From an uncultured Gammaproteobacteria bacterium (lineage in GTDB: Bacteria > Patescibacteriota > Patescibacteriia > UBA2196): a stretch of DNA of 64,000 nt. Both the position numbers and the translations under genes were made by a program. The stretch lies in contig CAZFWC010000001.1 of NCBI GenBank assembly GCA_964522515.1, positions 14,536 to 78,535 of the forward strand. Direction: 5' to 3'. Below the pieces are notes generated by a model that did no database searches, was not told where the DNA came from, and was given only the letters and a program-made list of their open reading frames with translations. Numbering within the stretch: position 1 is the first letter of the stretch; each line of letters opens with the position of its first letter. Positions 2,180 through 53,632 of this stretch are shown piece after piece.

Positions 2180-2211
2180 CCCCAAGGTTTTAAACTTTGG
2201 GGATTTTTTTT
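2180..2211 (+). terminator. Rho-independent terminator (CCCCAAGG...CTTTGGGG + T-run)
   Basis: 8-bp GC stem, 7-nt loop, followed by ATTTTTTTT. Confidence 0.6.
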
Positions 2212-2286
2212 AACAACAAAATATCTCCAGTCAAGAGCGAAGGAACTAAATCATTTATTTTTAGTAATTTTTAAAGTTGTTTAGAA

Positions 2287-3732: not shown

Positions 3733-3815
3733 ATTAGTTTAGCACGCGAATTTTCAGAATTACCTAAAATTTACGCGAATTTAATTCTGGTTTATTATGG
3801 TTATTTTGGAAATTC
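3733..3815. repeat. AT-rich palindromic intergenic repeat family (cacgcgaatt / ccagaat modules), copy 1
   Basis: shares about 30-nt blocks AATTTTAGGTAATTCTGG.AATTCG.GT.CTAT with 17080..17165 and 30720..30840. Confidence 0.7.
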
Positions 3816-4620
3816 GTGTGCTATTTTTTAATGAATTTGTAAAAACCAACCACGAAAATCTCACAACCGCGTTAAAGATTCTTTTAAATCGGCGCGGTTC
3901 TTTTTTTAATCTATAAATCCATTCATACGAGCTCTGTAAATTTTCAGGAGCTCTTTTTATTTTTCCTGAAATGTAATCAAACGCACCCCCAACTCCAATT
4001 GCTAATTTCACACTTGGCATTTTTGATAAATTTTCATTAATCCATTTTTGCGCGTGTGGATGATTTAAAGCGACAAACAAAATATCTGTTTGAAAATTAT
4101 TTATTTTTTCAATAATATTATGTGTTTCAAAAACAGAATAATTAATTTGTAAATTTGGATTTTGTTTTTTTAAATTTTCTGCAGTTAATTCAGATGTGTT
4201 GTTGTAACCGCCCAGTAAAAATATTTTATTATTTACTAATTTACAAATTTCAGGAATTAAATCAGCGCCAGTTATTATTTCTTTAATAATATTTAATTTT
4301 TCATCATTTCTAGTTATCCCCCACCAAGCAATTTTTAATCCAATAAAAAATTTCAGAATTCTAGAATTTTTATTTTTTATTAAATCTAAATATTTTGTTG
4401 CTAATTTAATCCCGTACCCGTCTGCAACTGACAACCACGAATTATTAATTATATTTTTAAATTCTGCATCTTTTTGCGCTTCAAAAATAAATTCAGGATT
4501 AGTTGTTACTAATTGATGTTGCTCGTTTGTATTTGATAATAATAAATTCTTAATTTTATCTAAAACTTCATTTTTAGAAATTATATTAATTTTTACATCT
4601 AATATTTTAATTTGATTCAT
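3781..4620 (-). CDS. WecB/TagA/CpsF-family glycosyltransferase
   Basis: family-typical C-terminal block GVGGAFD...RAP...W..R...EPRR; size about 280 aa. Confidence 0.7.
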   Translation of the reverse strand: MNQIKILDVKINIISKNEVLDKIKNLLLSNTNEQHQLVTTNPEFIFEAQKDAEFKNIINNSWLSVADGYGIKLATKYLDLIKNKNSRILKFFIGLKIAWWGITRNDEKLNIIKEIITGADLIPEICKLVNNKIFLLGGYNNTSELTAENLKKQNPNLQINYSVFETHNIIEKINNFQTDILFVALNHPHAQKWINENLSKMPSVKLAIGVGGAFDYISGKIKRAPENLQSSYEWIYRLKKEPRRFKRIFNAVVRFSWLVFTNSLKNSTRISKITIINQN

Positions 4621-4657
4621 AAATTAATTTTAGCAATTTATTATTGATTTGACAAAT

Positions 4658-4687
4658 TTTGAATTTTTGTTATAATAAAATTATAAA
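4658..4687 (+). promoter_or_regulatory. sigma70-like promoter (TTGACA-16-TATAAT) upstream of ORF 4726
   Basis: canonical -35/-10 hexamers with 16-nt spacer; GGAGGG SD 8 nt upstream of TTG start. Confidence 0.5.
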
Positions 4688-4725
4688 AATTTTTATTAAT
4701 AACTAAACAAAATGGAGGGAATAAA

Positions 4726-5001
4726 TTGAAAATAGCAAATATTGATGGAGAGTTGGTTATTAAGTATGGAAGGAAGAAAATTTTAGATTTATTGAAAGAC
4801 AAAAAAACACAACAGGAATTAGAGAATTTTTTACAAGGCACATCAAAAGAAATTCTAATTAAATTTTGTGGGAATAGAAAAGATAATAAAAAGAAAGAGA
4901 AAAAAATTCAAAGTGTGGTAGCGAATTGGGAAGAGAATTTGATTAGAAAGGTTTTAGAGGGTACAAAATTTGAAAAAAAATTAAAAAACGCACTTAAATA
5001 A
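4726..5001 (+). CDS. hypothetical small lysine-rich protein (TTG start)
   Basis: ORF with strong SD and promoter; no recognisable domain. Confidence 0.35.
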   Translation: MKIANIDGELVIKYGRKKILDLLKDKKTQQELENFLQGTSKEILIKFCGNRKDNKKKEKKIQSVVANWEENLIRKVLEGTKFEKKLKNALK

Positions 5002-5026: not shown

Positions 5027-7900
5027 TTACTGCATTTTTATTAAATAATATCCATCAGTTTCTAAGTTATCTTGATAAATAATTTTTTGTCCAGATTTGT
5101 TAAGTTTATTTTTAGCTTTGTGATCAATTATTTCAAAATCAGCAGGTAAAGTGATTTGACTTGTGAAATCAGTTAAAGATAATCCTGGTTGTTTTTGAAC
5201 AATTAAATTGTATTGCAAATTATTTTTTTGATTATTAAAATTTAAAAATCCAAATATTTTTTCAAAGAAATTTTCATCATTTTTTTCAAGTTTAAAAGGT
5301 AATTTATATTTTAAAATAATTTCTTTTGATTCATTTGGTTTTAAACTTAACCACCCAGCGAAAACAGTTTTATCAAATTCTTCAGTAATTCTAACATTAA
5401 ATTCTTCATTTAAAATAGGATTTTTTTCAATATTTTTTAAATCAACATCTTCAGTTAAATTTATTTGATTGTCAGCCGCAGCTTTAACAAGAAAACTTGG
5501 TTTAATTTCAAAACCATTTGCAGAAATTAATTTACTATTTTTTGGAACATAAAATTTAATATAATCTACATTTTCTGCTTTTTCAAAAATATCATTTAAA
5601 TCCCCGTTGTGTTTTCTTTTTAAAGAAACAGTATCAATTAAATCTCCATTAGAATTTATTTCAACAAAATGAGAAATTTGATTTTTAATTACTTTATCTG
5701 TTTTTCCACCTGCTAAACTAGCGTGAAAAATTGCAAGATAATCACCTTGTGTTTGCGCGATTTTTCCAGACCAAGAAAATTCATTTGCAACTTTTTGCAT
5801 TTCATTATTTTTAAACCACAAAAGAATATTTTTGTTGGATAAATTATTAAAAATTGTTTGCGCAAAAGTTGGTGTTTGATCAATTTTTAAATTAAAAATT
5901 TTTTCTAATAATTTTGGCATCAAATCCGCAATAATTTGTTTTGGTTTATTTTTTTCTTTGTTATATTCATATTCAACAGCCATTTGAATTTCTTTAGTAA
6001 AATTTTCTTGTGAAATTGTTTTTTCATAATTTGGCATTTCAATTGGACCAGTTATTTTTAGCAAATCTTTTATTAGATCAGGCGTTAGTGTAATTATTCC
6101 GTCCAAAGTTGTTCCCCCTAAAGTGTCTTCATAAAATAATGAGATTTTTTTTGCAGACGCTTCCCAATCTGCAAACCAATTTGCGTCCCAAATTTTCCAA
6201 TCAGGTGAAAAATGTTGTAGTTGTTTTGGAGCTTCAACTTGCATTTTAGTTGAGGCTTTTAAATCATAAAATCCTCCACCAGGAATTTTTAAATTAATAA
6301 TTTTTGCGTTTTGAATTTCAATTAAAGCATAAGACCCCATAAAACCGCCAGTTGGTCTGATTTCAGAATTGTTTTGAAAAATAATTAAATATCTCATTAT
6401 TTTATTTTGTCCTAAAAATGAATCTAAAAAAATATTTAAAGTTTTCAATTTATTTATATAATTTTTTAAAGCTGGCAACGAGGATTTAAATAAAATTAAT
6501 TTTTCAATATTTTCTTCATCAATATATTTGCTTAAAATGTCAACATCAATTTTATCTGCCTTATTTAAAAGTTCTAAAATTTGTGGTTCAATTTGTTTTA
6601 ATTTTTCAGAAGTTAATTTAATTTTTTCACTTAATTTGTTTTCTGAATTTGTGTTTGAATTTATTTTTTCTAATTCTTCACTAAGCTTAGAAATATCTTG
6701 ACCAAGTTCCGCAGATATTTGCCCAATTAATAATAAATTTTCAGCTTGTTGCGCTTCAGGAATAATTTTAATAATTTGTTTGCTAAAAATTCCTAAATTA
6801 GATAAATAATTTCGCGCAATTTTAAAATTAAAATACGCTTGTTCAAAATATTCATTTGCTTCATTAAAATCTAAATCTTTTGTTAAAATAGAAGCGTCTT
6901 TTAATAAATCTAATCCTTGAATTGATTTGCCTAAAACCTGTCCTTTGATTTGATTTGTTTTTTGTTTTAAATTTAAAATTTGTAAAGGCAAAACAATAAT
7001 TAAACAAACTAAAGCAAATGATAAAATTGGTTTAAAATTAATTTTTATTTTTATTTTTTTAAAAGCGGATTGCGTTGAAATTGGAATTGGAACTTTAGCA
7101 AATTTTGATTTTTTAAAAAATAAAATAAAAGTTTTTAAATTTAAAATAAATGATTTTGCTAAATTAAAAAAAGCTAAAGTTGTGTTTTTAATTAACCACC
7201 AAATTGATTTAAGCGAACGATCAACAATAAAATCTAAAACGCGAAATGGGAAAGTTATAATTTGCCAGATTAAATTTAAATTAACTTTTATTACTTTAAA
7301 TATTTTTTGCGCTAAAGTTAGGTCGCTAAAATCTGTTTGAATTATTTGCGATTTTTTTGTTTCTAATTCTAAAAAATTTTGTGTTAGATCAAGCTTAATT
7401 TTTGATTTTATTTTTTGTTTTTCTGGTTTGTAGTATTTAATTTTTTCAATAATTCCATCAGATTCATCTGGCGATTCAAAATCAATTTTTGGTTGCTGAT
7501 CAATTTGTTGAGTATCTTGTTTTCTTTTTTTTTCCTGAACAAAATTGCTAAACCAATCTTCTGTGTTAAAATTTGGAGTTGAAAAATTTGGTAAATTGTG
7601 AAGAGGTTCTTTTTCTTGAAATTCTAATTTCAATAAATTTTTATTTGGATGTTTTAAATCAAGCAAGTGATTTGATAAATTATGTTTTTGATTTGTAAAA
7701 TTTATTTTTGATTTTATTTTTCCTGCCCGCCGTAGCTTTGGCGAAGGAGGGCTGTTGTCTAGTTTTTCTTTATTTATAGAAACAGGAAAAACAAAATCCT
7801 CTGCCCAGTTATCTGATTGAATTTTTTTAAATTTATTTTTTAATTTATTTTTTTGCATATTAAAAAATTTATTGTCCCGAGTACTAGGGATTATCCACAC
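5027..7900 (-). CDS. large membrane-anchored protein, DUF4012-like (RPTGGFMGSY motif)
   Basis: single TM at about residue 290, C-terminal 600 aa with RPTGGFMGSY motif recalled from DUF4012 proteins; N-terminal 70 aa probably not real (GTG start overlaps palindromic elements; likely start near 7858 MQKNKL). Confidence 0.5.
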   Translation of the reverse strand: MWIIPSTRDNKFFNMQKNKLKNKFKKIQSDNWAEDFVFPVSINKEKLDNSPPSPKLRRAGKIKSKINFTNQKHNLSNHLLDLKHPNKNLLKLEFQEKEPLHNLPNFSTPNFNTEDWFSNFVQEKKRKQDTQQIDQQPKIDFESPDESDGIIEKIKYYKPEKQKIKSKIKLDLTQNFLELETKKSQIIQTDFSDLTLAQKIFKVIKVNLNLIWQIITFPFRVLDFIVDRSLKSIWWLIKNTTLAFFNLAKSFILNLKTFILFFKKSKFAKVPIPISTQSAFKKIKIKINFKPILSFALVCLIIVLPLQILNLKQKTNQIKGQVLGKSIQGLDLLKDASILTKDLDFNEANEYFEQAYFNFKIARNYLSNLGIFSKQIIKIIPEAQQAENLLLIGQISAELGQDISKLSEELEKINSNTNSENKLSEKIKLTSEKLKQIEPQILELLNKADKIDVDILSKYIDEENIEKLILFKSSLPALKNYINKLKTLNIFLDSFLGQNKIMRYLIIFQNNSEIRPTGGFMGSYALIEIQNAKIINLKIPGGGFYDLKASTKMQVEAPKQLQHFSPDWKIWDANWFADWEASAKKISLFYEDTLGGTTLDGIITLTPDLIKDLLKITGPIEMPNYEKTISQENFTKEIQMAVEYEYNKEKNKPKQIIADLMPKLLEKIFNLKIDQTPTFAQTIFNNLSNKNILLWFKNNEMQKVANEFSWSGKIAQTQGDYLAIFHASLAGGKTDKVIKNQISHFVEINSNGDLIDTVSLKRKHNGDLNDIFEKAENVDYIKFYVPKNSKLISANGFEIKPSFLVKAAADNQINLTEDVDLKNIEKNPILNEEFNVRITEEFDKTVFAGWLSLKPNESKEIILKYKLPFKLEKNDENFFEKIFGFLNFNNQKNNLQYNLIVQKQPGLSLTDFTSQITLPADFEIIDHKAKNKLNKSGQKIIYQDNLETDGYYLIKMQ
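7722..7755. repeat. intragenic in-frame GC-rich element core (in DUF4012-like gene)
   Basis: CCTGCCCGCCGTAGCTTTGGCGAAGGAGG; ORF continuous across it (…PPSPKLRRAG…). Confidence 0.8.
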
Positions 7901-12926: not shown

Positions 12927-12936
12927 ATTGATTTTT

Positions 12937-13105
12937 TCCGCCTTCGCCCCTAATCCCGAGTACTCGGGACTACTGGACTATGGCGGATAAATTTCTAGTT
13001 CAGTTTTAAATTTTTTTTAATTTAAAAAAATTTAAAACTGCATTAAGAGCCTGCCCGCCGTAGCTAGGATTTTTTAGAGTTGAGGCGAAGGAGGGTTAGG
13101 CGAAT
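12937..13105. repeat. GC-rich composite palindromic element (with CCCGAGTACTCGGG sub-hairpin) filling the GT4 / radical-SAM intergenic gap
   Basis: same modules as 30..203; ends at the stop codon of 13106..14233. Confidence 0.85.
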
Positions 13106-16310: not shown

Positions 16311-17068
16311 TTTGAGTAAGTTGTAATTTGTTCATTAAACAAAAAATCAAAACCAGTAGCAAAAGCATTTTCTAAAAGTTTTATTTTTTGATTAACTTGA
16401 TTTTCATTTGGAATAAATTCAATTTCAAAACTAGCATTTGCTTTTTCATTTAATTTTAATTCATCTAAATTCCAAGTAATTAATCTTGTTTTCTTATCAA
16501 AATTTAAAGTTTTGCCTTTGTTAACTGCGATTTTATTAGTGTAATTAATATTTGTTGGCAGTTTAGCTTGGATTTTAATATTTTTAATTGCGCGTGGTGA
16601 GCTACTTAATTCCCAAACAATTCGCGCGGAAGTTGTTGCATTAACTTTAGGAGGCCAAGCTCCAATTCCAAGTTGTTCACTTTCTTTTGTGTAGTAAATT
16701 AATTGATTATTAAAAATTAAATTTGCTGGCACAGTATCATTTTTTACTTCTTGCTTGTCTGTTTCACCGCTAACTTTTTGATGAGTAATTTTTAATTCAA
16801 AAGTTTCAATTGGGAATTTTTGAGTTAATAAAAAAATATTAATTAAAATTAAAAGAATAATTAGAAAAATTAAAATCAAATCAATAATTAAATGTTTTTT
16901 TGACTCTTTATAAAATTTATCAAATCGTTTGAGCAAAGGATTTGTAAAAATATTTAAAGTGCGAATATAAATTGGATATTTTTTTGTGTTTTCTAAATTC
17001 AAATCTTGTTTAGAGATTATTTTTTCGTCTTGTGAAACATCTTGAATTTTATTTTTTTGATTATTCAT
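16271..17068 (-). CDS. hypothetical membrane-anchored extracytoplasmic protein
   Basis: single N-terminal TM; last 8 codons (PVVIPNDL) encoded by the gtcatcccgag-family repeat arm. Confidence 0.4.
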   Translation of the reverse strand: MNNQKNKIQDVSQDEKIISKQDLNLENTKKYPIYIRTLNIFTNPLLKRFDKFYKESKKHLIIDLILIFLIILLILINIFLLTQKFPIETFELKITHQKVSGETDKQEVKNDTVPANLIFNNQLIYYTKESEQLGIGAWPPKVNATTSARIVWELSSSPRAIKNIKIQAKLPTNINYTNKIAVNKGKTLNFDKKTRLITWNLDELKLNEKANASFEIEFIPNENQVNQKIKLLENAFATGFDFLFNEQITTYSNNIYSPVVIPNDL

Positions 17069-17079
17069 ATTTTTAAAAA

Positions 17080-17165
17080 TTAATTAAGCACGCGAATTAC
17101 CAGAATAAACCAGAATTTTAATTCGTGTAAATTTTAGGTAATTCTGGTAATTCGTGTTCTATTCT
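17080..17165. repeat. AT-rich palindromic intergenic repeat family, copy 2
   Basis: AGCACGCGAATTACCAGAATAAACCAGAATTTTAATTCGTGTAAATTTTAGGTAATTCTGGTAATTCGTGTTCTAT. Confidence 0.7.
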
Positions 17166-17241
17166 ATTTAAAAAAACAATTTCCTCTCTTCTAAAAAATT
17201 TTAAAAGTCATTCAACATGACAATAAAAAATACTGACAATC

Positions 17242-30167: not shown

Positions 30168-30174
30168 TTTTTTC

Positions 30175-30245
30175 TTAATGTCATCCCGAGTTTTGATAGA
30201 ATTTTTTAGGATTGGGTCAAGGCGATGGGATCCCGTTTTTATACA
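30175..30245. repeat. gtcatcccgag family copy upstream of map
   Basis: TGTCATCCCGAGTTTTGATAGAATTTTTTAGGATTGGGTCAAGGCGATGGGATCCCG. Confidence 0.7.
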
Positions 30246-30402
30246 AATAATTCTAATTTAAACCAACACTGCGAATTTTTAATTATTTATTTTTATCTAA
30301 TATTAATTTAAAAAATAGTTTTCCACAGTTTCGGGCTTGACTTCTTCTTCTTTTGCTAGACTTAAAATTGATTAAAATAATTCACAATTAAATTTAATTT
30401 AA

Positions 30403-30648
30403 ATGGAGGAAGTTAAGATGAAAAAAGGATGTTTAATTATTTTGATTATATTTATAATCAATCTTACAATTGGTGGTTTTGCCACAGAATATATAGTTGA
30501 ATTTTGGGGATCTGTTGTTAAAGAACAACCAGTTGATGTTCCTTTTGCTCCGTGCGTTGTAGCAGGATTATTTTTAGGAGAAGCAACTATCCCGTTGGCA
30601 GCCTTAACTTGGATTTTATCGTTTGTTGTAGATCGCCCAACGAAATAG
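30403..30648 (+). CDS. small hypothetical membrane protein (likely start at second ATG, 30418)
   Basis: GGAGG 8 nt upstream of second ATG; two hydrophobic helices. Confidence 0.35.
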   Translation: MEEVKMKKGCLIILIIFIINLTIGGFATEYIVEFWGSVVKEQPVDVPFAPCVVAGLFLGEATIPLAALTWILSFVVDRPTK

Positions 30649-30719
30649 AAATAAATTTTACAACATCAAATACTCAAAGTCCTCAATTTTTTAGGGGACT
30701 TTTTTATTTTCAAAAAATA

Positions 30720-30840
30720 ATCAAGCACGCGAATTTCCAGAAGCGAAAAAGTAAATGATTTTACTTTTGAGACAGAATAAACCAGAATTTAAATTCGCGT
30801 CAATTTTAGGTAATTCTGGAAATTCGCGTTCTATTTTATT
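30720..30840. repeat. AT-rich palindromic intergenic repeat family, copy 3 (longest)
   Basis: AGCACGCGAATTTCCAGAAGCG...AAACCAGAATTTAAATTCGCGTCAATTTTAGGTAATTCTGGAAATTCGCGTTCTAT. Confidence 0.7.
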
Positions 30841-30851
30841 TACTTAATTTT

Positions 30852-31580
30852 TCAATTTTTTAATCCCAAGCTAGAAAATATATCTCTCTTAACCTTCTCA
30901 ATACTTTGCTCACCATTTATTTCAATTAACAAATTTTTATCACGATAATATTCAACAACTTCTTCTGTTTCAGTGTGATAAATTTTTAATCGTTTGCGAA
31001 TTGAATCTTCTGTGTCATCTTCACGAATTTCTAATTTTCCACCGCATTTATCACAAATATTTTCTGTTTTAGGAGGATTAAATTTAATGTGATAAATCTC
31101 ACCACATTTAGTGCAAGTTCTGCGACCAGACAAACGATAAATTGCTTCATCATCTGAAATATTAACTAAAATTACAGAAGAAATATTTGTGACTGTTTCA
31201 ATAAATTTAGCTTGAATAATTATTCTAGGAAAACCATCAAAAATAAAACCATTTTTGCAGTCGTCTTTTTTTATTCTGTTTTTTGCTAATTTGTGCGCGA
31301 TTGAATTTGGAACAAGCTGTCCTTTGTTCATAAATTCTTTTGCTTGTTTTCCAATCTCTGTTTTGTTTTCAATTTCATTTCGTAAAAGTTGACCAATTGA
31401 AATATTTGGAACAATTAATTTTTTAGATAAAAATTCAGCTTGTGTTCCTTTGCCAGATCCTTGTGGTCCAAGAATAATTATTTTATGGATTTTGTTTTTC
31501 ATATAATTTATTTTAACATTTGCGTATTTAATTTGCAATAAAAAAACAGGCAAAATCAAAATGCCTTTTTTTATTCGCAT
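30852..31580 (-). CDS. adk: adenylate kinase (Zn-lid type); probable true start near 31502 (MKNKIHKIIILGPQGSGKGT)
   Basis: P-loop GPQGSGKGT, LID with CTKCG...CDKCG zinc motif; 26-codon N-terminal extension looks spurious. Confidence 0.9.
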   Translation of the reverse strand: MRIKKGILILPVFLLQIKYANVKINYMKNKIHKIIILGPQGSGKGTQAEFLSKKLIVPNISIGQLLRNEIENKTEIGKQAKEFMNKGQLVPNSIAHKLAKNRIKKDDCKNGFIFDGFPRIIIQAKFIETVTNISSVILVNISDDEAIYRLSGRRTCTKCGEIYHIKFNPPKTENICDKCGGKLEIREDDTEDSIRKRLKIYHTETEEVVEYYRDKNLLIEINGEQSIEKVKRDIFSSLGLKN

Positions 31581-31594
31581 TATTAGTTTAAATT

Positions 31595-31670
31595 AGCACT
31601 ATTCGCATTTTACAGACCCTTCCGCCCCGACCCAATCCTAAAAACTCTGTCGGAATTCAGGATGACAAAA
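31595..31670. repeat. gtcatcccgag family copy (reverse orientation) upstream of adk
   Basis: CCTTCCGCCCCGACCCAATCCTAAAAA...TTCAGGATGACAA. Confidence 0.65.
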
Positions 31671-33951: not shown

Positions 33952-33960
33952 AATTTATTT

Positions 33961-34096
33961 CTCCGCCTTCGCTTCTAAAAAATCCTACTGGACTACGGCG
34001 GATAAACTCTTGTGTTTAAAATTTAAAAAACATAGGAGCCTGTCCGCCGTAGCTAGAGTTTTTTTAGGATTGAAGGCGGAGGAGGATTAGGCGCAA
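33961..34096. repeat. GC-rich composite element between rplR and rpsE
   Basis: shared modules; right end at rplR stop, left end 9 nt from rpsE start. Confidence 0.85.
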
Positions 34097-34528
34097 TTAA
34101 AATTTAAAACCTGCTTTACGAGCACCTTCTGCTACTGCTTTAACTCGTCCGTGATATTTATATTTTGATTTATCAAAAACACAAGTTTTTATTTTTTTTG
34201 CAATTGCTTTTTTTGCTAAAAGTTTTCCAACTTCAAAAGATATTAATATTTTATTAGTTAGTTTATTATTATTTTTTTTATTTTCAACTCCTTCCTTTCC
34301 CTGCCCGTCAGGCAGACGGGTTAATTTCTCAATTTCTTTTTTATTTATTTCTTTATCACTTGCGCTAACTAATGTTTTGCCTTTTTCATCATCAATTAAT
34401 TGCGCTGAAATATTTTTTAAACTTCTAAATACGCTTAATCTTGGTTTTGTTGCTGTACCAAAAATTTGAGCTCTTACACGGGCTTTTCTTCTTTGCTGTT
34501 TTTTATTTTTTATTTTTTGTGGATTCAT
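34097..34528 (-). CDS. rplR: 50S ribosomal protein L18 (with in-frame palindrome insertion)
   Basis: L18 conserved N- and C-terminal blocks; operon position. Confidence 0.85.
   Translation of the reverse strand: MNPQKIKNKKQQRRKARVRAQIFGTATKPRLSVFRSLKNISAQLIDDEKGKTLVSASDKEINKKEIEKLTRLPDGQGKEGVENKKNNNKLTNKILISFEVGKLLAKKAIAKKIKTCVFDKSKYKYHGRVKAVAEGARKAGFKF
34299..34322. repeat. intragenic GC palindrome module (rplR)
   Basis: CCTGCCCGTCAGGCAGACGGG. Confidence 0.6.
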
Positions 34529-35086: not shown

Positions 35087-35096
35087 AAATTTATAA

Positions 35097-35282
35097 TTTA
35101 TCCGCCTTCGCCCCTAAAAAATCCTATTGGACTACGGCGGATACCTGTCTGCCGACAGGCAGGAACTCTTGTGTTTAAAATTTAAAAAACACAGGAGCTT
35201 GCCTCCTCCTTCGCTAAAGCTACGGCGGGACAGGCGCCGTAGCAATTAAAGAGTTGCTAGGGAGCGAAGGAGGGGAAGCGAT
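35097..35282. repeat. GC-rich composite element between rpsH and rplF
   Basis: full module set incl. CCTGTCTGCCGACAGGCAGG palindrome. Confidence 0.85.
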
Positions 35283-35720
35283 TTAATAAATTTCACAAAC
35301 TACTTCCCCACCTAAATTTTCTTTCTTAGCTTTCACATTTGTCATTAATCCTTTTGATGTTGAAATAATTGCAATACCGTAATTATTTAAAACTACTGGC
35401 AAATTATCTTTTGAAACATAAATTCTGCGACCTGGTTTTGAAATTCTTTTTATTTTGCTAATTTTAGGATTATTTCCATTGTAAAATAATTTAATTTTTA
35501 ATTGATTAAATTTAGCATTTTTTTCTTGCGCGCTTTTTGCAACAATTTTTTTAGAAATTTGTGGTTCTATTTTTTCAACGTCTTTAATCCATTTTTCTGT
35601 TTCTAAAATTTTAGCAATATTAAATTTTAATTTTGAATACGGCAAAATCACCTCAAGTTTTTTAACTGCTTGAGCGTTTCTAATTCTTGTTAACATATCT
35701 GCGATTGGATCTGTGTACAT
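35283..35720 (-). CDS. rpsH: 30S ribosomal protein S8
   Basis: DPIADMLTRIRNA N-terminus, GGE..CEIY C-terminus. Confidence 0.9.
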   Translation of the reverse strand: MYTDPIADMLTRIRNAQAVKKLEVILPYSKLKFNIAKILETEKWIKDVEKIEPQISKKIVAKSAQEKNAKFNQLKIKLFYNGNNPKISKIKRISKPGRRIYVSKDNLPVVLNNYGIAIISTSKGLMTNVKAKKENLGGEVVCEIY

Positions 35721-35734
35721 AATTTTGTAATTTC

Positions 35735-35900
35735 TCCGCCTTCGCCCTTAAAAAATCCTTTAACACTACGGCGGATAAATTTTTAGTGTTTTTTTATAAA
35801 AAAGAATTAAGAGCCTGCCCGCGCCGGCTTGTCCGCCGTAGCCTTTGGCAAGGAGGAAGCTAGAGTTTTTTTAGAGTTGAAGCGAAGGAGGGTTAGGCGA
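35735..35900. repeat. GC-rich composite element between rpsN and rpsH
   Basis: shared modules. Confidence 0.85.
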
Positions 35901-36086
35901 CTACCAACTTGATTTTTTAATTCCTGGAATTTCGCCTTTGTTTGCTAATTCTCTAAAGCAAATTCTACACAAACCAAAATCTCGCATAAAACCTCTGTTT
36001 CTACCACAACGCCAACAACGATTCACTTTTTGCGTTGTGAATTTTGGTTTTCTTTTTGATTTTGCGATTTGCGCTTTAGTTGCCAT
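35901..36086 (-). CDS. rpsN: 30S ribosomal protein S14 type Z (zinc-binding)
   Basis: 61 aa, CWRCGR...CRIC zinc ribbon. Confidence 0.9.
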
Positions 36087-36096
36087 AAAAGTTTTT

Positions 36097-36221
36097 CTCC
36101 GCCTTCGTTCCCTAAAAATCCTACTGGACTACGGCGGATAAACTCTTGTGTTAAAAAAACACAGAAGCTTGCCCGCCGTAGCTGGGACTTTTAGGATTGA
36201 AGCGAAGGAGGGGAAGCTAAA
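36097..36221. repeat. GC-rich composite element between rplE and rpsN
   Basis: shared modules. Confidence 0.85.
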
Positions 36222-36764
36222 TTATTTCTGAAATGGAAACCCAAATAATTTTAATAATTCAAAACCTTGTTCTTTGTTTTTTGCTGTTGTTGTAATTGCT
36301 ACTTCTAAGCCGTGAATTGTTTCAACTTTTGACATTTCAATTTCTGCAAAAGCAGTGTGGTCTTTAAATCCTATATTTAAATTACCTTGTTTGTCAATAT
36401 TTTTTTGATTAATCCCTCTAAAATCTCTAACCCTTGGCAAAGTAACATTAATTAATTTATCAAAAAAATCATACATTCTATTTCCGCGCAATGTGACTTT
36501 TGCTCCAACAATATTTCCTTGTCTTGTTTTAAAAGCTGAAATTGCTTTTTTAGCTTTTGTAAAAATTGGTTTTTGTCCAGTAATTTTAGTTAAAGTTTTT
36601 TCAATTAATTCTAAATATTTATTTTCTCTTTTTGATGTTGAAATTCCTACATTTAAAGTTATTTTTTCTAATTTTGGAACAGCTAAATTATTTTTAAAAC
36701 CAAACTTTTCCTTAAGCGCAGGAATAATCTCGACAGTAAATTTATTTTTTAGACGATTTGACAT
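36222..36764 (-). CDS. rplE: 50S ribosomal protein L5
   Basis: L5 conserved blocks; operon position. Confidence 0.9.
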   Translation of the reverse strand: MSNRLKNKFTVEIIPALKEKFGFKNNLAVPKLEKITLNVGISTSKRENKYLELIEKTLTKITGQKPIFTKAKKAISAFKTRQGNIVGAKVTLRGNRMYDFFDKLINVTLPRVRDFRGINQKNIDKQGNLNIGFKDHTAFAEIEMSKVETIHGLEVAITTTAKNKEQGFELLKLFGFPFQK

Positions 36765-38437: not shown

Positions 38438-38452
38438 AATTTTTTATAGTTT

Positions 38453-38598
38453 ATCCGCCTTCGCCCCTAATCCCGAGTACTCGGGACTACTGGACTACGG
38501 CGGATACCTGTCTGCCGACAGGCAGGAACTCTTGTGTTAAAAAAGCACAGGAGCTTGCCCGCCGTAGCTAGGACTTTTAGGGTTGAAGCGAAGGAGGG
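38453..38598. repeat. GC-rich composite element between rpsC and rplP
   Basis: shared modules incl. CCCGAGTACTCGGG sub-hairpin. Confidence 0.85.
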
Positions 38599-39240
38599 TT
38601 AAACAAATTTTTCACCTTTATAAATCCAAATCTTAACTCCAATTGCTCCGTAAGTTGTGCGAGCTGTTGCTGTTCCATAATCAATATCAGCGCGCAAAGT
38701 GTGCAAAGGAATTTTTCCTTGAGTTAATTTTTCAGTGCGAGCAATTTCTACTCCGCCTAATCTTCCAGCGCAATGAACTTTCACACCTTGCGCACCAGCT
38801 TTTATAATTGCTTCAATATTTCTTTTCATTGAACGACGGTACGGAATTCTTTTTTCTAATTCAAGAGCAATATTTTGCGCCATTATTTGCGCGCAAAGTT
38901 GTGGCTTGTTAACTTCTTTTATATTAATTTGTAGTTTGATTTTTTTATTTTTTATAATTTTTTTTAATAAATAATTTTTAATTTCTTCAACTCCAACTCC
39001 GCCTCGCCCAATAATAATTCCTGGTTTTGATGAATGCAAAATTATATTAATGTTGTCGGGTGATCTTTCAATTTCAACACTTTTTAAACTGCAGTCCCTA
39101 AGTTTACTATTTAAATATTCTCTCAATTTTGTATCTTGTTCAAGTTGTCGCGCAAAAGCAGGTCCACGCTTAAACCAGCGAGAAGCCCAATTTTCGCTTA
39201 AACCAATTCTGAAAATTTTAGGATTTACTTTGTGACCCAT
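38599..39240 (-). CDS. rpsC: 30S ribosomal protein S3
   Basis: KH domain and S3 C-terminal domain (GRLGGVEIARTE). Confidence 0.9.
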   Translation of the reverse strand: MGHKVNPKIFRIGLSENWASRWFKRGPAFARQLEQDTKLREYLNSKLRDCSLKSVEIERSPDNINIILHSSKPGIIIGRGGVGVEEIKNYLLKKIIKNKKIKLQINIKEVNKPQLCAQIMAQNIALELEKRIPYRRSMKRNIEAIIKAGAQGVKVHCAGRLGGVEIARTEKLTQGKIPLHTLRADIDYGTATARTTYGAIGVKIWIYKGEKFV

Positions 39241-41156: not shown

Positions 41157-41162
41157 AAAAGT

Positions 41163-41356
41163 TTTTCCGCCTTCGCCCCTAATCCCGAGTACTCGGGACT
41201 ACTGGACTACGGCGGATACCTGTCTAGCTGACAGGCAGGAACTCTTGTGTTTAAAATTTAAAAAACACAGGAGCTTGCCTCCTCCTTCGCTAAAGCTACG
41301 GCGGACAGGCGCCGTGGCAATTAAAGGGTCGCTAGGGAGCGAAGGAGGGGAAGCGA
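41163..41356. repeat. GC-rich composite element between rplW and rplB
   Basis: near-identical to 35097..35282 plus sub-hairpin. Confidence 0.85.
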
Positions 41357-41803
41357 CTAAACTCCTTCGTAAACATCTAATTTATCATTTTTTTGTAAAA
41401 TAATTATTGCTTTTTTCCAATTTTTTAATTTACCAAATTTTCTTCCGTATCTTACCATTTTACCGCGCATATTTACAGTATTAATTTTAACTGGTTTTAC
41501 ACCATAAAGTGTTTCAATTGCTTTTTTAATTTCTGATTTATTTGATTTTATCGCAACTTCAAAAACATATTGATTAAACTCTCCTAAGGAAGATGCTTGT
41601 TCAGTAATTATTGGTCTGATTAAATTTTTGTAAGCGTTGCCGTGATATTTTGTTGCCAGACTTTTATTTTTTGGTAATTTAGTTTTTTTTAATATTTTTT
41701 TTTCTTCAACTTCAACTTCATCAAATTTTTTAATCTGTTTTTTAGCTGTGTCTGATTTTTTCTTTTTAAATTTATCAAAAATACTCATATTGTCATTTAT
41801 CAA
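41357..41803 (-). CDS. rplW: 50S ribosomal protein L23 (N-terminally extended)
   Basis: L23 core IIRPIITEQA...; operon position. Confidence 0.85.
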   Translation of the reverse strand: MINDNMSIFDKFKKKKSDTAKKQIKKFDEVEVEEKKILKKTKLPKNKSLATKYHGNAYKNLIRPIITEQASSLGEFNQYVFEVAIKSNKSEIKKAIETLYGVKPVKINTVNMRGKMVRYGRKFGKLKNWKKAIIILQKNDKLDVYEGV

Positions 41804-41853: not shown

Positions 41854-42618
41854 TTATTTATTTTTTAAATATATTTTTTCAATTATTTCTAAACTTTTTT
41901 CAATAATTAATATTTTCTCAAACTTCAAAAGATCCAAAACATTTAAACTGTCTGCTGTTGTGATTTTAATTCCTTGCAAATTTTTTCCTGCGCTAAATAT
42001 TTTTCTGTCTGCTTTTTCTAAAATAATTAATAATGATAATTTGTAATTTTTAATGTCAAAATTGCGCTTTCCCTCCTTCGCTCCCTGAGTGTCCTTTATC
42101 ACTTCGGCGGGCAAGCTTTTAGTTTTTTTTGTTTTCTTTTCAATCTCTTTAATATTTATTATACTTTTTAAATTTTTCAAAATTTCAACAAATTCTTTTG
42201 TTTTACCTTCAGCTAAATTTAATTTGTCTAATAAAATAAATAAATTATTGTTTACTTTATCAGACAAACACATAAATAATGCTTTTGTTTTTTGTTTTTT
42301 ATTAACTTTTTTAGAAAAGTTTCTGTCTTTTGTGGGTCCAAAAGTCACACCGCCCCCAACCCAAATTGGTGAACGACTTGAACCGTGTCTTGCGCGTCCA
42401 GTTCCTTTTTGTTTCCAAGGTTTTTTCCCACCACCGCGAACTTCACTTTTATCTTTTGTGTGAGCAATCGCAACTCTTGAATTTGCCATTTGCGCAACTG
42501 CGACTTGATGTACAACAGAATTTTTTATTTCAATTCCAAAAATTTTAGAATTTAATTCTAGTTCTTTTACTTTTTCTCCAAGTTGGTTGTAGATTTGTAT
42601 TTTTTTCATGTTAGTCAT
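41854..42618 (-). CDS. rplD: 50S ribosomal protein L4 (C-terminally extended, with in-frame element insertion)
   Basis: L4 core blocks; operon position. Confidence 0.85.
   Translation of the reverse strand: MTNMKKIQIYNQLGEKVKELELNSKIFGIEIKNSVVHQVAVAQMANSRVAIAHTKDKSEVRGGGKKPWKQKGTGRARHGSSRSPIWVGGGVTFGPTKDRNFSKKVNKKQKTKALFMCLSDKVNNNLFILLDKLNLAEGKTKEFVEILKNLKSIINIKEIEKKTKKTKSLPAEVIKDTQGAKEGKRNFDIKNYKLSLLIILEKADRKIFSAGKNLQGIKITTADSLNVLDLLKFEKILIIEKSLEIIEKIYLKNK
42070..42116. repeat. intragenic in-frame GC-rich element (rplD)
   Basis: CCTCCTTCGCTCCCTGAGTG...CTTCGGCGGGCAAG. Confidence 0.75.
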
Positions 42619-42710
42619 CCTGATCCCGAGTGCTCGGGAGAAGGATCTGTTTTTTTAATTATTTATTTTATTAATTTTTGGCTAATTTTAGCTAATAATA
42701 CGAATGGGCT

Positions 42711-42739
42711 TGACATTTTTTTAAAAATTTATTAAAATT
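42711..42739 (+). promoter_or_regulatory. sigma70-like promoter TTGACA-17-TAAAAT for opposite-strand small ORF
   Basis: canonical hexamers and spacing; GGAGG SD 8 nt upstream of ATG at 42787. Confidence 0.5.
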
Positions 42740-42786
42740 TATATAAAATAATTTACAATTTAATTAACTAAAATGGAGGCAAAAAA

Positions 42787-43002
42787 ATGGAATTAAAAGT
42801 TCGGGCAATAAAGCCTGATGATTTTAAAGAATTTAAAGAAATTTTTTCCGACAAAAAAGCAGATTACGATAATTGTTTGTTTTGTAATGAGAAAGCTACT
42901 AAAGTTACAGAATCTGCTGATAAAACTATTCAAATTCGTAGTTGCGACGAAAAAAAATGTCTAAAAATAGCTTTAAATTTTGTTTCAAAATATTCAATCT
43001 AA
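42787..43002 (+). CDS. small Cys-rich (CxxC...C..C) hypothetical protein inserted antisense between rplC and rplD
   Basis: strong SD, promoter and downstream terminator; 4 Cys in zinc-ribbon-like spacing. Confidence 0.4.
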   Translation: MELKVRAIKPDDFKEFKEIFSDKKADYDNCLFCNEKATKVTESADKTIQIRSCDEKKCLKIALNFVSKYSI

Positions 43003-43043
43003 AAATTAATAAACTGTTTCTCTTACTCATTTCATTATTCTGC

Positions 43044-43084
43044 CGAGCAGGATTTGAAATGAGTTTTTTATTTTGAAAAAATTT
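43044..43084 (+). terminator. Rho-independent terminator (10-bp stem ACTCATTTCA/TGAAATGAGT + T-run)
   Basis: perfect 10-bp inverted repeat followed by TTTTTATTTT. Confidence 0.6.
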
Positions 43085-43131
43085 ATTTTAAAAAAAATTT
43101 ATATCTTATATCTTATATTTTATATTCTATA

Positions 43132-43887
43132 TTATTTGTTTTCTTCAACTTTTTTTTCAGTTTCCTTATTTTCTGCTTTCTCAATTTTTTTATCAGAGTT
43201 TATCTGCTTTTCATCAGTATTTTTATCAGTGATTTTCAACTCCCCTTCCCCTTGAATTAAAACTAAACTATTTCTCGCTCCCGGAACAGCGCCTTTAACA
43301 TACAAAATATTTTTTTCTTTATCAATTTTTATTATTTCTAAATTTTTAACAGTAATTTGCTCTGAACCCATATGACCTGGCATTTTTTTTCCTTTAAAAA
43401 CTCTTGCTGGATCAGTGGCGCCAATTGAACCACCTAATCTTAATTGATCTTTGTGTCCGTGGCTTGCTGGACTTCCGTGAAAACCATGGCGTCTTACAAC
43501 ACCTTGAAAACCTTTACCTTTTGAAACACCTGTTATTTTAATTTTATCTTTAATTTCAAAAGTTTCTACTGTAATTTTGTCCCCGCGTTTTAGTTTGTTG
43601 GCTCCATCGCTCTGCGTGGAACCTTCTTGTTCAGTTTTAGGATTTAATCTAAATTCTTTAAGCCAACGAAAATTTTCTAAATCTTTTAAGTGTCCTTTTA
43701 CTGCTTTTGACAAACTTTTCTTTTTATCAAATCCAATTTGCACTGCTGAATATTTATCTTTGCTGTCTTTTTTTTTAACTTGAGTAATTAAACACGGACC
43801 AGCATTAACAAGAGTGACAGGAATAACTTCACCTTTTTCATTAAAAATTTGTGACATTTCTAATTTTTTTCCTAAAATAAATTTCAT
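43132..43887 (-). CDS. rplC: 50S ribosomal protein L3 (C-terminally extended)
   Basis: L3 conserved blocks; operon position after rpsJ. Confidence 0.9.
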   Translation of the reverse strand: MKFILGKKLEMSQIFNEKGEVIPVTLVNAGPCLITQVKKKDSKDKYSAVQIGFDKKKSLSKAVKGHLKDLENFRWLKEFRLNPKTEQEGSTQSDGANKLKRGDKITVETFEIKDKIKITGVSKGKGFQGVVRRHGFHGSPASHGHKDQLRLGGSIGATDPARVFKGKKMPGHMGSEQITVKNLEIIKIDKEKNILYVKGAVPGARNSLVLIQGEGELKITDKNTDEKQINSDKKIEKAENKETEKKVEENK

Positions 43888-44472: not shown

Positions 44473-44886
44473 TTAAATTGTTGCTAATTCTTGTTTTAAA
44501 AAATCTAAAGTTTGTGTTTGTTTTTTAGTTTGCTTTCCAGGAATTTTTTTAATAGCTTCTATTATTAATAAAATAACTTCTTTTAATTTATTTCTGTCTT
44601 TAATAACTCCACTTTCTATTAATTCCTGTAGTTTATTTAATTTTTTGTCAAGATAATCTTTTGTCACAATTTCGCCACTTAAACCAGCTGAAAAGTTGTT
44701 AAATTCTTCTTTAAAAGTATCCTTGGTCACTGTTACTTCTTTTAAGTCTTCTATTTTTTTATCCATTCTTTTTTCTAAACTTTCTAAATCATCTTTAGTT
44801 GCTAAAACAGGAAACAAAACTTCTTCAGCAAATTGTCCCAAAATTTCTAAAGTTAATGGTTTTTGTAATTCTTTTTTGTTTGACAT
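44473..44886 (-). CDS. hypothetical helical/coiled-coil protein between tuf and rpsJ
   Basis: intact 137-aa ORF in a normally gene-free junction; no family recognised. Confidence 0.45.
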   Translation of the reverse strand: MSNKKELQKPLTLEILGQFAEEVLFPVLATKDDLESLEKRMDKKIEDLKEVTVTKDTFKEEFNNFSAGLSGEIVTKDYLDKKLNKLQELIESGVIKDRNKLKEVILLIIEAIKKIPGKQTKKQTQTLDFLKQELATI

Positions 44887-44996: not shown

Positions 44997-46199
44997 TTAT
45001 TTTATAATTTTAGTAACAACACCAGCGCCAACAGTGTGACCGCCTTCACGAATCGCAAATTTAAGTTTTTCTTCCAAAGCAATTGGTTGAATTAATTTAA
45101 CTTTTAAATTAACAGTGTCGCCCGGCATTACCATTTCTGTTCCTTCTGGCAATTCAATATCACCGGTTACATCAGTTGTTCTAATATAAAATTGCGGTTT
45201 GTATCCTTTCATAAAAGGAGTGTGTCGTCCGCCTTCTTCTTTTGTTAAAATATAAATTTCAGCTTCAAATTCAGTGTGTGGAGTAATTGATCCTGGTTTT
45301 GCTAAAACTTGTCCGCGTAAAATATCTTCTTTTTTAGTTCCACGAAGTAAAATTCCAGCGTTGTCACCAGCTCTGCCTTCATCAAGTGACTTGTTAAACA
45401 TTTCAATTCCAGTTACAACAGTTTTTGCTGTGTCTTTTAAACCAACAATTTCAATTTCATCATTTAATTTAACAATTCCTCTTTCAATTCTACCAGTTGA
45501 AACAGTTCCACGACCTTCAATTGAGAAAACATCTTCAACAGGCATTAAGAAAGGTTTTTCAGTGTCTCGTTTTGGTTCTGGAATGTAAGAATCAAGTTTG
45601 TCCATTAATTCCAAAATTGATTTGTAATTTTCATCATCTTTGTTTCCAGCTTGAGCTGCTTCTAAAGCTTTAAGAGCAGATCCTTTAATAAATGGGATTT
45701 CGTCACCTGGAAATTCATATTTTTTTAAAAGATCTTTGATTTCTTCTTCAACTAAATCAATTAATTCAGGATCATCAACTTGATCTGTTTTGTTTAAATA
45801 AACAACAATTGAAGGAACACCAACTTGGCGAGCAAGTAAAATGTGTTCACGAGTTTGAGGCATTGGACCGTCAGCAGCAGACACAACTAAAATTGCACCA
45901 TCCATTTGAGCAGCGCCGGTAATCATATTTTTAATGTAATCTGCGTGACCTGGACAATCAATGTGAGCGTAGTGTCGTTTGTCAGTTTCGTATTCAACAT
46001 GAGCTGTGTTAATTGTAATTCCACGAGCTTTTTCTTCAGGCGCGTTGTCGATTTCATTTAGACTTTTATTTTGCGCAGTTTTACCTTCAGCATTAAGAAC
46101 TGCAAGGATTGCCGCAGTTAAAGTTGTTTTACCGTGATCAACATGACCAATTGTGCCAATGTTAACATGCGGTTTTGTTCGTTCGAATTTTTCAGCCAT
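44997..46199 (-). CDS. tuf: elongation factor Tu
   Basis: [22 protein letters not shown]-motifs; full-length EF-Tu. Confidence 0.97.
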
Positions 46200-46400
46200 T
46201 TTATTTATGATTTGCTAACAACCTTTCCCTAAAGGGAAAGTTTTCTCCAGTTGTTAGAGTTAATTTTTTTATTAATTAAATTTTAACAGATGCTAAAAAT
46301 AATGTCAAACAACAAACCCAAAGTTCAAAGTTAAAAGCTCAAAAAAATATCAAATACTAAATATTAAATTTTTAAATAAAATTTTTTCTAAAAGAACAAG

Positions 46401-46458
46401 GAGCCTGTCCGCCGTAGCTAGAGTTTTTTAGGATTGGGGGCGTAGGCGGATTAGGCGA
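46401..46458. repeat. GC-rich element short copy abutting stop of acidic protein gene
   Basis: GAGCCTGTCCGCCGTAGC...TTTTTTAGGATTGGGGGCGTAGGCGGATTAGGCGA. Confidence 0.8.
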
Positions 46459-47094
46459 TTAATAAACTGCTTCTTCCTCAAATTCATTTTCTATTTCTTC
46501 ATCATTATTTTCATCAATATCTTTTTCATCAAACGAAACATCAATAATTGGTTTTTCTTCTGTTCTAAAAAAATCTGAGGCTGTTACATCTGGTGGAGGT
46601 GGAATATCTTCGTATTTAATTGGTTCTGTTTCAGAATTGTCTTTTAAATTATCAAATTTTAAATCATTGTTTTTTATTTCATCTGCGTCCAAATCATATT
46701 TAGGTGCAGTAAAATCCTCTTCCTCTTCCTCATCTTCATTTTCATTTTCGTAATCATCTTCTTCCCAATTATTATTTTTAAAATCTTTTTTTTCATCTTC
46801 ATCTTCCCAAGGTCTGTAATCTAATTCAGGTTTATCAAATTCAGATTTAAATGGATCTTCAATTTCTAATTCGTCTTCTTGTTCTGGATGTTCTTGTTTC
46901 CAAATTGAAATATCACGATCAATTTGGTTTAACATTTCTTTTTCGTTTAAATTTTTAATATTGTCCGCATTTTCAATAATTTTTTCATAATCTGAAAAAG
47001 GCATTAAAACTAAATTTGTATTATTGTTTTCATCCACAATAATAATTTTGTCATTTGTTTTTTTAACTAAGTTGATGATTTTGTCTAGGTTCAT
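46459..47094 (-). CDS. highly acidic hypothetical protein (Asp/Glu-rich C-terminal two thirds)
   Basis: composition; no domain recognised; adjacent to TA pair and RM-like gene. Confidence 0.45.
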   Translation of the reverse strand: MNLDKIINLVKKTNDKIIIVDENNNTNLVLMPFSDYEKIIENADNIKNLNEKEMLNQIDRDISIWKQEHPEQEDELEIEDPFKSEFDKPELDYRPWEDEDEKKDFKNNNWEEDDYENENEDEEEEEDFTAPKYDLDADEIKNNDLKFDNLKDNSETEPIKYEDIPPPPDVTASDFFRTEEKPIIDVSFDEKDIDENNDEEIENEFEEEAVY

Positions 47095-53118: not shown

Positions 53119-53538
53119 TTATTTTTTCTCTTTCTTTGCTCCATATAAACTTCTTGATTGTTTTCGACTTTCAACTCCTTGCGCGTCATATCTTCCACGC
53201 ACAATGTGGTAACGCACACCTGGTAAATCTTTAACTCTTCCGCCACGAATCATCACAATTGAATGTTCTTGCAAATTATGTCCAACACCAGGAATGTAAG
53301 CCCAGACTTCGCGTCCGTTTGATAATCTAACTCGCGCAACTTTTCTTAAAGCTGAATTCGGTTTTTTAGGAGTTTTAGTTGTAACTTTAACACAAACTCC
53401 GCGTTTAAAACTAGAGCCTTTTTTTAAATCTCTTGATTTTCTTTTCATCACATTTAAAGTTGACCGTAAATCAGGTGATTTGGTTTTTTTAATTTTTGAC
53501 TTTCGTCCTTTTTTAATTAATTGATTTATTGTGGGCAT
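53119..53538 (-). CDS. rpsL: 30S ribosomal protein S12
   Basis: PTINQLI...highly conserved S12. Confidence 0.95.
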
Positions 53539-53546
53539 TTTTATTT

Positions 53547-53632
53547 CTCCGCCTTCGCCCCTAAAAAATCCTACTGGACTACGGCGCCTGTCCGCCGTAG
53601 CCTTGGCAAAGGAGGAGATAAACTCTTGTGTT
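53547..53632. repeat. GC-rich element upstream of rpsL start
   Basis: CTCCGCCTTCGCCCC...CTACGGCGCCTGTCCGCCGTAGCC...GGAGG. Confidence 0.8.

Follow-up and report, generated by a model that had tools for sequence, protein, structure and literature searches.

Few gene orders in bacteria are conserved as rigidly as that of the S10/spc ribosomal-protein cluster, and phylogenomic studies of uncultured lineages use it as a contiguous block of marker genes. Why, then, are rplC and rplD, the normally contiguous genes for ribosomal proteins L3 and L4, held half a kilobase apart in the 64,000-nucleotide (nt) stretch of contig CAZFWC010000001.1 analysed here (hereafter the window), and what occupies the space between them? 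The window has a G+C content of 28.8% and carries the ribosomal super-operon on its minus strand, in the order tuf, a 137-amino-acid (aa) open reading frame (ORF), rpsJ, rplC, rplD, rplW, rplB and rpsS, with secY, adk and map further along. The best protein matches of both L3 and L4 all belong to Patescibacteria (the candidate phyla radiation, CPR), the named ones being Kuenenbacteria, Buchananbacteria and related groups. The window sequence recurs at 99.9-100% identity on contigs of several JGI and ENA metagenomes and therefore represents a real, recurrent population, which excludes an assembly chimera. Our answer, to which we assign a probability of roughly 60% from the sequence comparisons set out below, is that the spacer holds an accessory, dispensable small-protein gene with its own transcription signals, lodged in a strain-variable slot.

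An earlier note on this DNA had described a gap of about 510 bp filled by an antisense cassette with promoter, small ORF and terminator, and had suggested comparing the locus with relatives. The spacer indeed measures 513 bp when the longest rplD ORF, which starts at 42618, is taken as its border, or 522 bp from the likely rplD start, the ATG at 42609 (MKKIQIY) that is favoured by alignment with relatives. The locus is organized as follows.

41854..42609, minus strand: rplD (ribosomal protein L4; Pfam Ribosomal_L4, E = 9.3e-61)
42614..42650, unstranded: GC-rich imperfect palindrome directly upstream of rplD (GTCATCCTGATCCCGAGTGCTCGGGAGAAGGATC at 42614..42647), a member of a dispersed repeat family
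42681..42731, plus strand: conserved 51-nt block with a GCTAAT-N4-GCTAAT direct repeat, the -35 box and the spacer, delimited by comparison with the related locus L007
42710..42738, plus strand: predicted sigma-70-type promoter, TTGACA-17-TAAAAT
42739..42786, plus strand: 5' untranslated region (UTR) module, about 40 nt from a predicted transcription start near 42745
42775..42779, plus strand: Shine-Dalgarno (SD) sequence GGAGG, 7 nt before the ATG, as read from the sequence
42787..43002, plus strand: 71-aa ORF, led by GGAGG and with gene-like codon usage
43025..43075, plus strand: predicted intrinsic terminator, a 10+7 bp hairpin followed by UUUUUUAUUUU, from folding
43076..43131, unstranded: AT-rich right flank with 7-nt TTATATC-like repeats, homologous to the right flank of L007
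43132..43887, minus strand: rplC (ribosomal protein L3; Pfam Ribosomal_L3, E = 1.7e-18)

The plus-strand promoter matches the consensus at 11 of 12 positions, a quality reached by 11 sites in the window when both strands are counted, and lies one base from where the earlier note had put it. The terminator was found about 20 nt to the left of the 43044..43084 given there: its hairpin spans 43025..43064 and is followed by U6AU4 up to 43075, with a plus-strand folding energy of -20.7 kcal/mol (z = -5.2). Read on the minus strand, the same hairpin (-15.2 kcal/mol) is followed by UAAGAG, without a U-tract, and the fold and U-tract thus predict that the terminator is one-directional. Promoter matches on the minus strand of the gap are weak, reaching 9/12 at best (the tuf promoter scores 11/12 with an extended TG), and neither a promoter scan nor manual reading of the conserved block found a strong minus-strand promoter for rplD. 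Together with the missing operon-strand U-tract, this suggests that rplD probably relies on read-through from upstream. Among Rfam families, tRNAs alone reach their gathering thresholds in the window, and within the gap RsaJ is the single match at E <= 1 (19.7 bits against a threshold of 100 bits), with no ribosomal-protein leader.

The 71-aa ORF is the only one that the ORF list places in the gap. When the gap was shuffled 3000 times with its dinucleotides preserved, an ATG-started ORF of at least 71 aa appeared 53 times (1.8%) and one accompanied by an SD-like motif 6 times (0.2%), a figure that precedes any counting of the promoter and terminator. The codon log-likelihood ratio of the ORF is 0.228 per codon, above the 95th percentile of spurious ORFs (0.188), the value for real genes being 0.306 (sd 0.115), and its GC content by codon position (.37/.28/.15) follows that of genes (.39/.30/.18). 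The four signals of an independent bacterial gene are present at functional spacings, and the coding statistics are host-like. In line with this, and with the conservation of promoter, 5' UTR and SD sequence in relatives, the proposal that the plus strand carries a gene complete in itself, antisense to its ribosomal-protein neighbours, is supported.

The encoded protein carries cysteines at positions 30, 33, 53 and 58, so that the cysteine spacing noticed before reads CxxC-x19-Cx4C. It is hydrophilic and presumably soluble (pI 8.3, GRAVY -0.56), has no histidine and shows no hydrophobic or transmembrane stretch. A word-indexed search of 5.8e9 proteins returned the self-match alone, and a full HMMER search of 1.84 billion cluster representatives yielded no homologue besides the protein itself; matches to WD40 and tandem-repeat proteins in HMMER were rejected as artefacts whose scores are summed from short stretches. 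Likewise, collections of phages and plasmids searched by tblastn contained nothing similar, and the window contains no paralogue. The possibility of a zinc-ribbon or antitoxin family found no support, in that Pfam, NCBIfam, PADLOC and PHROGs gave nothing significant; the best Pfam match, Zn_ribbon_NrdR (PF22811) over residues 29-45, stays below its cut-off (13.4 bits against 27.2 bits, E = 0.079). That the product may bind a metal through its CxxC...Cx4C cysteines is a guess from their spacing.

To see how the site is occupied elsewhere, the rplC-rplD junctions of about 90 related loci (referred to by L numbers) were compared. The two genes are contiguous or overlapping in most of them, and many apparent gaps proved to be Lys/Glu-rich C-terminal tails on L3. 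In four lineages, counting the window, this site is occupied by a unit of like layout that is always antisense, each with a different cargo.

Window: TTGACA-17-TAAAAT; cargo, the 71-aa soluble Cys-rich protein
L007/L100 (L3 81% identical): TTGACA-17-TAAACT; two GGAGG-led two-helix membrane peptides of 56 and 64 aa; strong terminator
L097/L101 (L4 75% identical): TTGACA-17-TTAAAT, whose -35 box overlaps the start codon of rplD; a similar UTR with GGAGG, a 38-aa membrane peptide and a terminator, then GC-rich palindromes
L009 (L3 60% identical): TTGACA promoter; 56-aa membrane peptide and terminator

The conserved block at 42681..42731 is identical between the window and L007 at 50 of 51 positions, whereas the flanking coding DNA is 76-78% identical and the spacer outside the block has otherwise diverged. 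On the rplC side, the right flank (43081..43190) aligns to that of L007 with a local score of 58 (shuffles: mean 28.9, sd 4.2, maximum 42), a homology also recovered by blastn. The cassette 5' UTR resembles those of L101 and L007, and the GGAGG has the same position in both of these and in a second module of the window, between adk and map, described below. The cargo proteins show no similarity to one another or to any family. Since the promoter/UTR module and both flanks are retained around unrelated cargo, the ORF or ORFs and the terminator have been replaced. A scan of metagenome DNA with the promoter block returned the same strain and, beyond it, chance matches downstream of a phage-like structural gene. 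On the rplC side of the L101 cassette, about five tandem copies of TTATTCTTGTCATCCTGT lie beside GTCATCCCGA-type palindromes (500..620 of that locus); this array has been annotated by a gene caller as a 40-aa ORF (MTRINRMTRINR...), and the L101 peptide itself is missed by some gene callers.

The slot can also be empty. L102 and L007 are 96-98% identical in DNA over rplC and rplD-rplW, yet the former has 15 bp where the latter has an 806-bp cassette; similarly, L098, 91-96% identical to L101, has 25 bp and overlapping genes where L101 has 668 bp. In both pairs the indel also alters the last codons of rplC, and in L101 the first 12 codons of rplD as well. The two genes are contiguous in L098, L099, L102 and L103, while L104 has a 331-bp spacer that contains palindromes only. 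In L015 the junction (1957..2346) is occupied, on the operon strand, by a gene whose product belongs to the 23S rRNA intervening-sequence proteins (PF05635, E = 7e-27), which shows that the site accepts foreign small genes. This gene is flanked by AAAACTCAAA-type tandem repeats. A neighbour-joining tree of L4, which as a single-protein tree is a rough guide, interleaves cassette-bearing and empty lineages. In L098, prmC and prfA on the opposite strand follow rplD in place of rplW (1163..3873), so that the S10 cluster is broken after rplD there.

As to how the cassette comes and goes, the features of a transposable element or a miniature inverted-repeat element were not found: the gap contains no transposase, its only inverted matches are low-complexity and AT-rich, and the boundaries of filled versus empty sites (L007/L102, L101/L098) show no target-site duplication. 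The pattern fits an accessory, recombination-prone slot and not a core regulatory device, and at the level of the clade the cassette is, judging from these alignments, dispensable. Of the two alternatives that had been put forward, a regulatory arrangement or a selfish insertion, the selfish or accessory one is thus favoured over core regulation, both by near-identical relatives with and without the cassette and by several equally close relatives in which the two genes are contiguous.

A second unit of this kind sits in the adk-map spacer of the same super-operon.

30168..30851, plus strand: sister cassette, with an GTCATCCCGA repeat, GGGCTTGAC, a paralogous 5' UTR, GGAGG, a 76-aa membrane ORF and a terminator
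30418..30648, plus strand: the 76-aa membrane ORF, its cargo
about 30676..30710, plus strand: its predicted terminator, a hairpin with a U-run, from folding

The GTCATCCCGA repeat adjoins the start of map. The UTR of the rplC-rplD cassette aligns to 30320..30422 with a local score of 75, the maximum over 2508 genomic windows being 64 (mean 30.8, sd 8.9), and we regard the two UTRs as paralogous; a third match to the module, at 5203..5226, was discarded as a chance hit inside the coding sequence of a 957-aa protein. The -35 and -10 boxes of the sister unit are about 20 nt apart, hence its promoter may be weaker. The sole homologue of the 76-aa cargo is the protein P0129 (72% identity), encoded in a HicA-rich accessory region of L109, from an organism of higher GC content, and the sequence upstream of it is unrelated. 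This accessory context shows that such cargo is drawn from a mobile pool of small genes.

The secY-adk spacer contains a 34-nt unit, GCGAATAGTGCTAATTTAAACTAATAATGCGAAT (31573..31607, minus strand), that is a partial second copy of the promoter block; with the upstream half of the L007 cassette block it shares 94% identity. An GTCATCCTGA repeat precedes it, and after it come a terminator-like hairpin and the putative adk promoter, TTGCAA-17-TAAAAT. The unit could be a repeat, or a protein-binding site common to these loci. Elsewhere in the window, a perfect TTGACA-16-TATAAT (4649..4676), a 91-aa orphan ORF (4726..5001) and a hairpin terminator form a plus-strand unit (4649..5001) wedged antisense between two minus-strand genes; nested antisense small genes thus seem to be a habit of this genome.

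The palindrome next to rplD had been counted among the contents of the gap. It is present, at 42614..42647, but belongs to a genome-wide repeat family and is not part of the cassette machinery. The stretch 42614..42650 has the properties of dispersed palindromic repeats of the REP or Rickettsia-palindromic-element type, being multi-copy, hairpin-forming and intergenic, with a copy in frame inside rplD. The motif GTCATCCYGA occurs 8 times against 1.06 expected, and much of the spacer DNA in the ribosomal-protein cluster is taken up by modules with a CCCGAG-N2-CTCGGG core and by several further kinds of GC-rich hairpin module. In the operon-strand RNA the palindrome folds at 42617..42646 (-15.7 kcal/mol, z = -4.6), and its 3' arm includes, in paired form, the AGGA located 8 nt upstream of the rplD ATG; the element may accordingly affect rplD translation or mRNA stability. 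Examples of the GC-rich hairpin repeats in the window are listed here.

18..206, 12931..13103, 33958..34097, 35089..35286 and 35723..35903
36094..36226, 38448..38612, 41160..41361, 46369..46461 and 53536..53627

Modular hairpin repeats (CCGCCTTCGCCCC..., CCCGAGTACTCGGG, CTTGCCCGCCGTAGC...GCGAAGGAGG) occupy many of the cluster's spacers in this genome of 29% GC, and they make up nearly the whole of the spacer (about 200 bp) between rplW and rplB. A further repeat, with AAGCACGCGAATT..CCAGAA and CAGAATAAACCAGAATTT..AATTCGCG, has two copies that are about 90% identical, at 17068..17170 and 30705..30842, the latter forming the right flank of the adk-map cassette. The in-frame copy lies at 42072..42115 of rplD (minus strand), adds about 23 aa (KTKSLPAEVIKDTQGAKEGKR) and is of the same family as the copies at 36168..36211 and 38554..38597; the insertion is missing from five close relatives, and L101 has a different one at the same position. 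The window rplC, for its part, ends in a lineage-specific Lys/Glu-rich tail of about 32 aa (43132..43230), which is shorter or absent in L007 and L102.

Upstream of rpsJ in the operon lie two further minus-strand genes.

44997..46199, minus strand: tuf, a member of the super-operon
44473..44886, minus strand: the 137-aa ORF between tuf and rpsJ, probably coiled-coil, with no family match

The 137-aa ORF has good codon statistics (0.387 per codon); in L007, rpsJ directly follows tuf and the ORF is missing.

How could such a unit persist within an essential operon? If the spacer is an accessory gene slot, the cassette would spread or be lost through homologous recombination, acting on the flanking genes, which are very conserved, and on the promoter/UTR module that the units have in common. 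Only the antisense orientation would then survive selection: a terminator in the sense orientation would be polar on about 20 essential downstream genes, while an antisense one, lacking a U-tract on the operon strand, would be tolerated because it lets the operon continue. Transcription from the tuf/rpsJ promoter would read through the gap into rplD, and convergent transcription across the operon is a reasonable inference from the arrangement of signals. Convergent RNA polymerases, together with complementary operon RNA, would lower cassette expression when ribosomal-protein transcription is high and allow it to rise when that transcription drops; the cassette might in turn modestly reduce or process the RNA of the rplC-rplD junction. 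One could go further and picture the rplC-rplD and adk-map junctions as docking slots whose cargo is swapped by recombination, silenced by operon transcription during growth and released when ribosome synthesis stops, an extension that we consider unlikely to be correct. If true, such slots would tie stress or toxin peptides to an inbuilt sensor of growth rate, with no need for a dedicated regulator.

Several observations weigh against an accessory protein-coding gene as the explanation. The 71-aa ORF is an absolute orphan, and an AlphaFold model built without an alignment has low confidence (pLDDT 52.7, helices only) and no confident fold, and is uninformative as to the beta-hairpin with two Cys knuckles (CxxC...CxxC) of a zinc ribbon. 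The contigs of the window's own species (9 or more by one count, 5-9 by another), 99.9-100% identical, show no substitution in the gap and hence provide no evidence of within-species selection on the ORF, nor is the empty allele seen among them. The near-perfect conservation of the 51-nt block exceeds the needs of a promoter and hints at an operator or a role for rplD. The four lineages that share the antisense orientation are not independent events. Finally, recombination is proposed from the absence of transposon features alone, and the activity of the promoter, termination at the hairpin, translation of the ORF and read-through by the operon are predictions from sequence.

Some of these points feed other explanations. 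The RNA, rather than the protein, could be the product: a cis-antisense transcript would process or down-tune the S10 mRNA through RNase III or interference, with the ORFs as incidental passengers, and the promoter/UTR region is indeed far better conserved than the freely replaced cargo (98% identity over the 51-nt block against 76-78% in the flanking genes) and antisense in every copy. Such an RNA might uncouple rpsJ-rplC from rplD and the genes downstream. The cassette is, however, entirely missing in near-identical relatives and several sister lineages and is therefore not a required regulator; moreover, every copy retains a strong GGAGG at the correct spacing, an ORF and a terminator, the ORF of the window has gene-like codon usage, and the predicted transcript ends before the rplC coding sequence. 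We accordingly see an RNA regulator as an unlikely explanation. A toxin-antitoxin module of type I, or a related stress-peptide module, would have the operon read-through RNA as antidote, and the peptide, potentially harmful to membranes, would be made from its own promoter only when ribosomal-protein transcription collapses. It would account for the hydrophobic 38-76-aa cargo with strong SD sequences in three of the four lineages and the adk-map copy, for the complete complementarity of the cargo to any rplC-to-rplD read-through RNA, and for a patchy distribution like that of addiction modules. Yet the window cargo is hydrophilic and has no transmembrane segment, PADLOC, Pfam and NCBIfam contain no matching toxin family, and no promoter for a dedicated antisense small RNA (sRNA) was found in the gap, where the best minus-strand match is the 9/12 one; for the window this makes a toxin quite improbable.

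The block might instead be the promoter or operator of an rplD-led unit, on the minus strand or bidirectional, in an operon that has been split, the plus-strand ORF being a by-product. Its location 60-120 nt upstream of rplD in the window and L007, the related 34-nt unit, which precedes the adk promoter and is oriented like the ribosomal-protein genes, an operon-strand TAAAAT 4-7 nt before the rplD ATG in L101 and L009, and the resemblance of the GCTAAT-N4-GCTAAT repeat to a protein-binding site all point this way. But the minus-strand match in the block (TTAAAA-18-TATTAT, 9/12) is poor and its spacing is worsened by a 1-nt indel in L007, whereas on the plus strand L007 retains the -35 box, the 17-nt spacer and the -10 box; rplC is not followed by a terminator on the minus strand, and the overlap of rplC and rplD in empty-site relatives implies ancestral co-transcription. 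A split operon is, in our judgement, unlikely. Decay is the last candidate, with the spacer as debris of repeat-mediated insertion and its promoter, ORF and terminator non-functional or coincidental. GC-rich repeats do expand the spacers of the cluster and even enter rplD, the L104 spacer holds palindromes only, and the 71-aa ORF is an orphan. What makes junk improbable is the coincidence of four signals at correct spacings, a promoter/UTR conserved across lineages, gene-like codon usage and the 0.2% chance of an ORF with an SD sequence. An accessory insertion is the simplest reading.

An accessory gene in this place matters beyond the locus itself. A clade of Patescibacteria tolerates strain-variable antisense genes, with predicted promoters of their own, within the S10 cluster, and repeat insertions even inside rplD, which bears on binning, on the assumption that marker genes are contiguous, and on the calling of small proteins in Patescibacteria genomes. 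The locus also offers a natural experiment on what an essential operon tolerates, namely an antisense orientation combined with a terminator predicted to act in one direction. If expression of cassette and operon is in fact coupled, nearly isogenic public strains with and without the cassette would be a test bed for convergent transcription and for the birth and turnover of orphan small proteins in reduced genomes.

Several known systems resemble parts of this arrangement. As in type I toxin-antitoxin loci (hok/sok, tisB/istR, fst, txpA/ratA), each small ORF stands behind a strong SD sequence, has a promoter and a terminator to itself and would be overlapped by a complementary transcript; the relatives carry hydrophobic cargo of 38-64 aa, and occurrence is patchy at the strain level. 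The window protein, in contrast, is hydrophilic, Cys-rich, 71 aa long and without a family match, so that the profile of a small (usually under 60 aa), hydrophobic and membrane-inserting toxin is seen in the cargo of L007, L101, L009 and the adk-map unit but not in that of the window; in place of a dedicated antisense sRNA gene, operon read-through is the only candidate antisense RNA. The palindrome at 42614..42650, and the palindrome alone, invites comparison with Rickettsia palindromic elements and REP/BIME repeats, which are likewise dispersed, GC-rich, hairpin-forming and placed in operon spacers, although here they form another sequence family, in Patescibacteria. Rickettsia palindromic elements sit in frame inside Rickettsia genes, and the in-frame repeat of rplD resembles those insertions.

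In excludons and nested antisense genes, found in Listeria and other bacteria, convergent transcription units overlap operons. The cassette is similar in being an opposite-strand unit within and against an operon, able to encode a product and to interfere; unlike them it is dispensable, has variable cargo and would produce a short transcript that is predicted to end before the rplC coding sequence, overlapping intercistronic RNA only. Integron cassettes and other swappable cassette arrays provide a second parallel, since a fixed site with boundaries conserved on both sides exchanges unrelated small ORFs. Integron cassettes, however, are promoterless ORFs followed by an attC site, next to intI and attI, but the present cassette has its own 11/12 promoter and terminator and is the single occupant of a slot within an essential operon; its neighbours are ribosomal-protein genes, and neither an integrase nor an attI or attC-type site adjoins it (integrases elsewhere in the genome were not searched for). 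The 23S rRNA intervening-sequence protein genes (PF05635) are comparable as insertions in a conserved locus, at the very same junction in L015, where the gene reads with the operon and its family is known, as opposed to the antisense orphan of the window. A search of the full-text literature found no account of an S10 operon that contains antisense cassettes, nor of such a slot in CPR bacteria, which does not in itself prove novelty. The cassette thus lacks defining traits of type I loci, excludons and integron cassettes, and in its predicted workings it would resemble any autonomous small gene that lies antisense within the spacer of an operon; what is unusual is its location in a highly conserved operon, a promoter that is conserved while the cargo behind it is swapped, and the existence of natural strain pairs with and without it.

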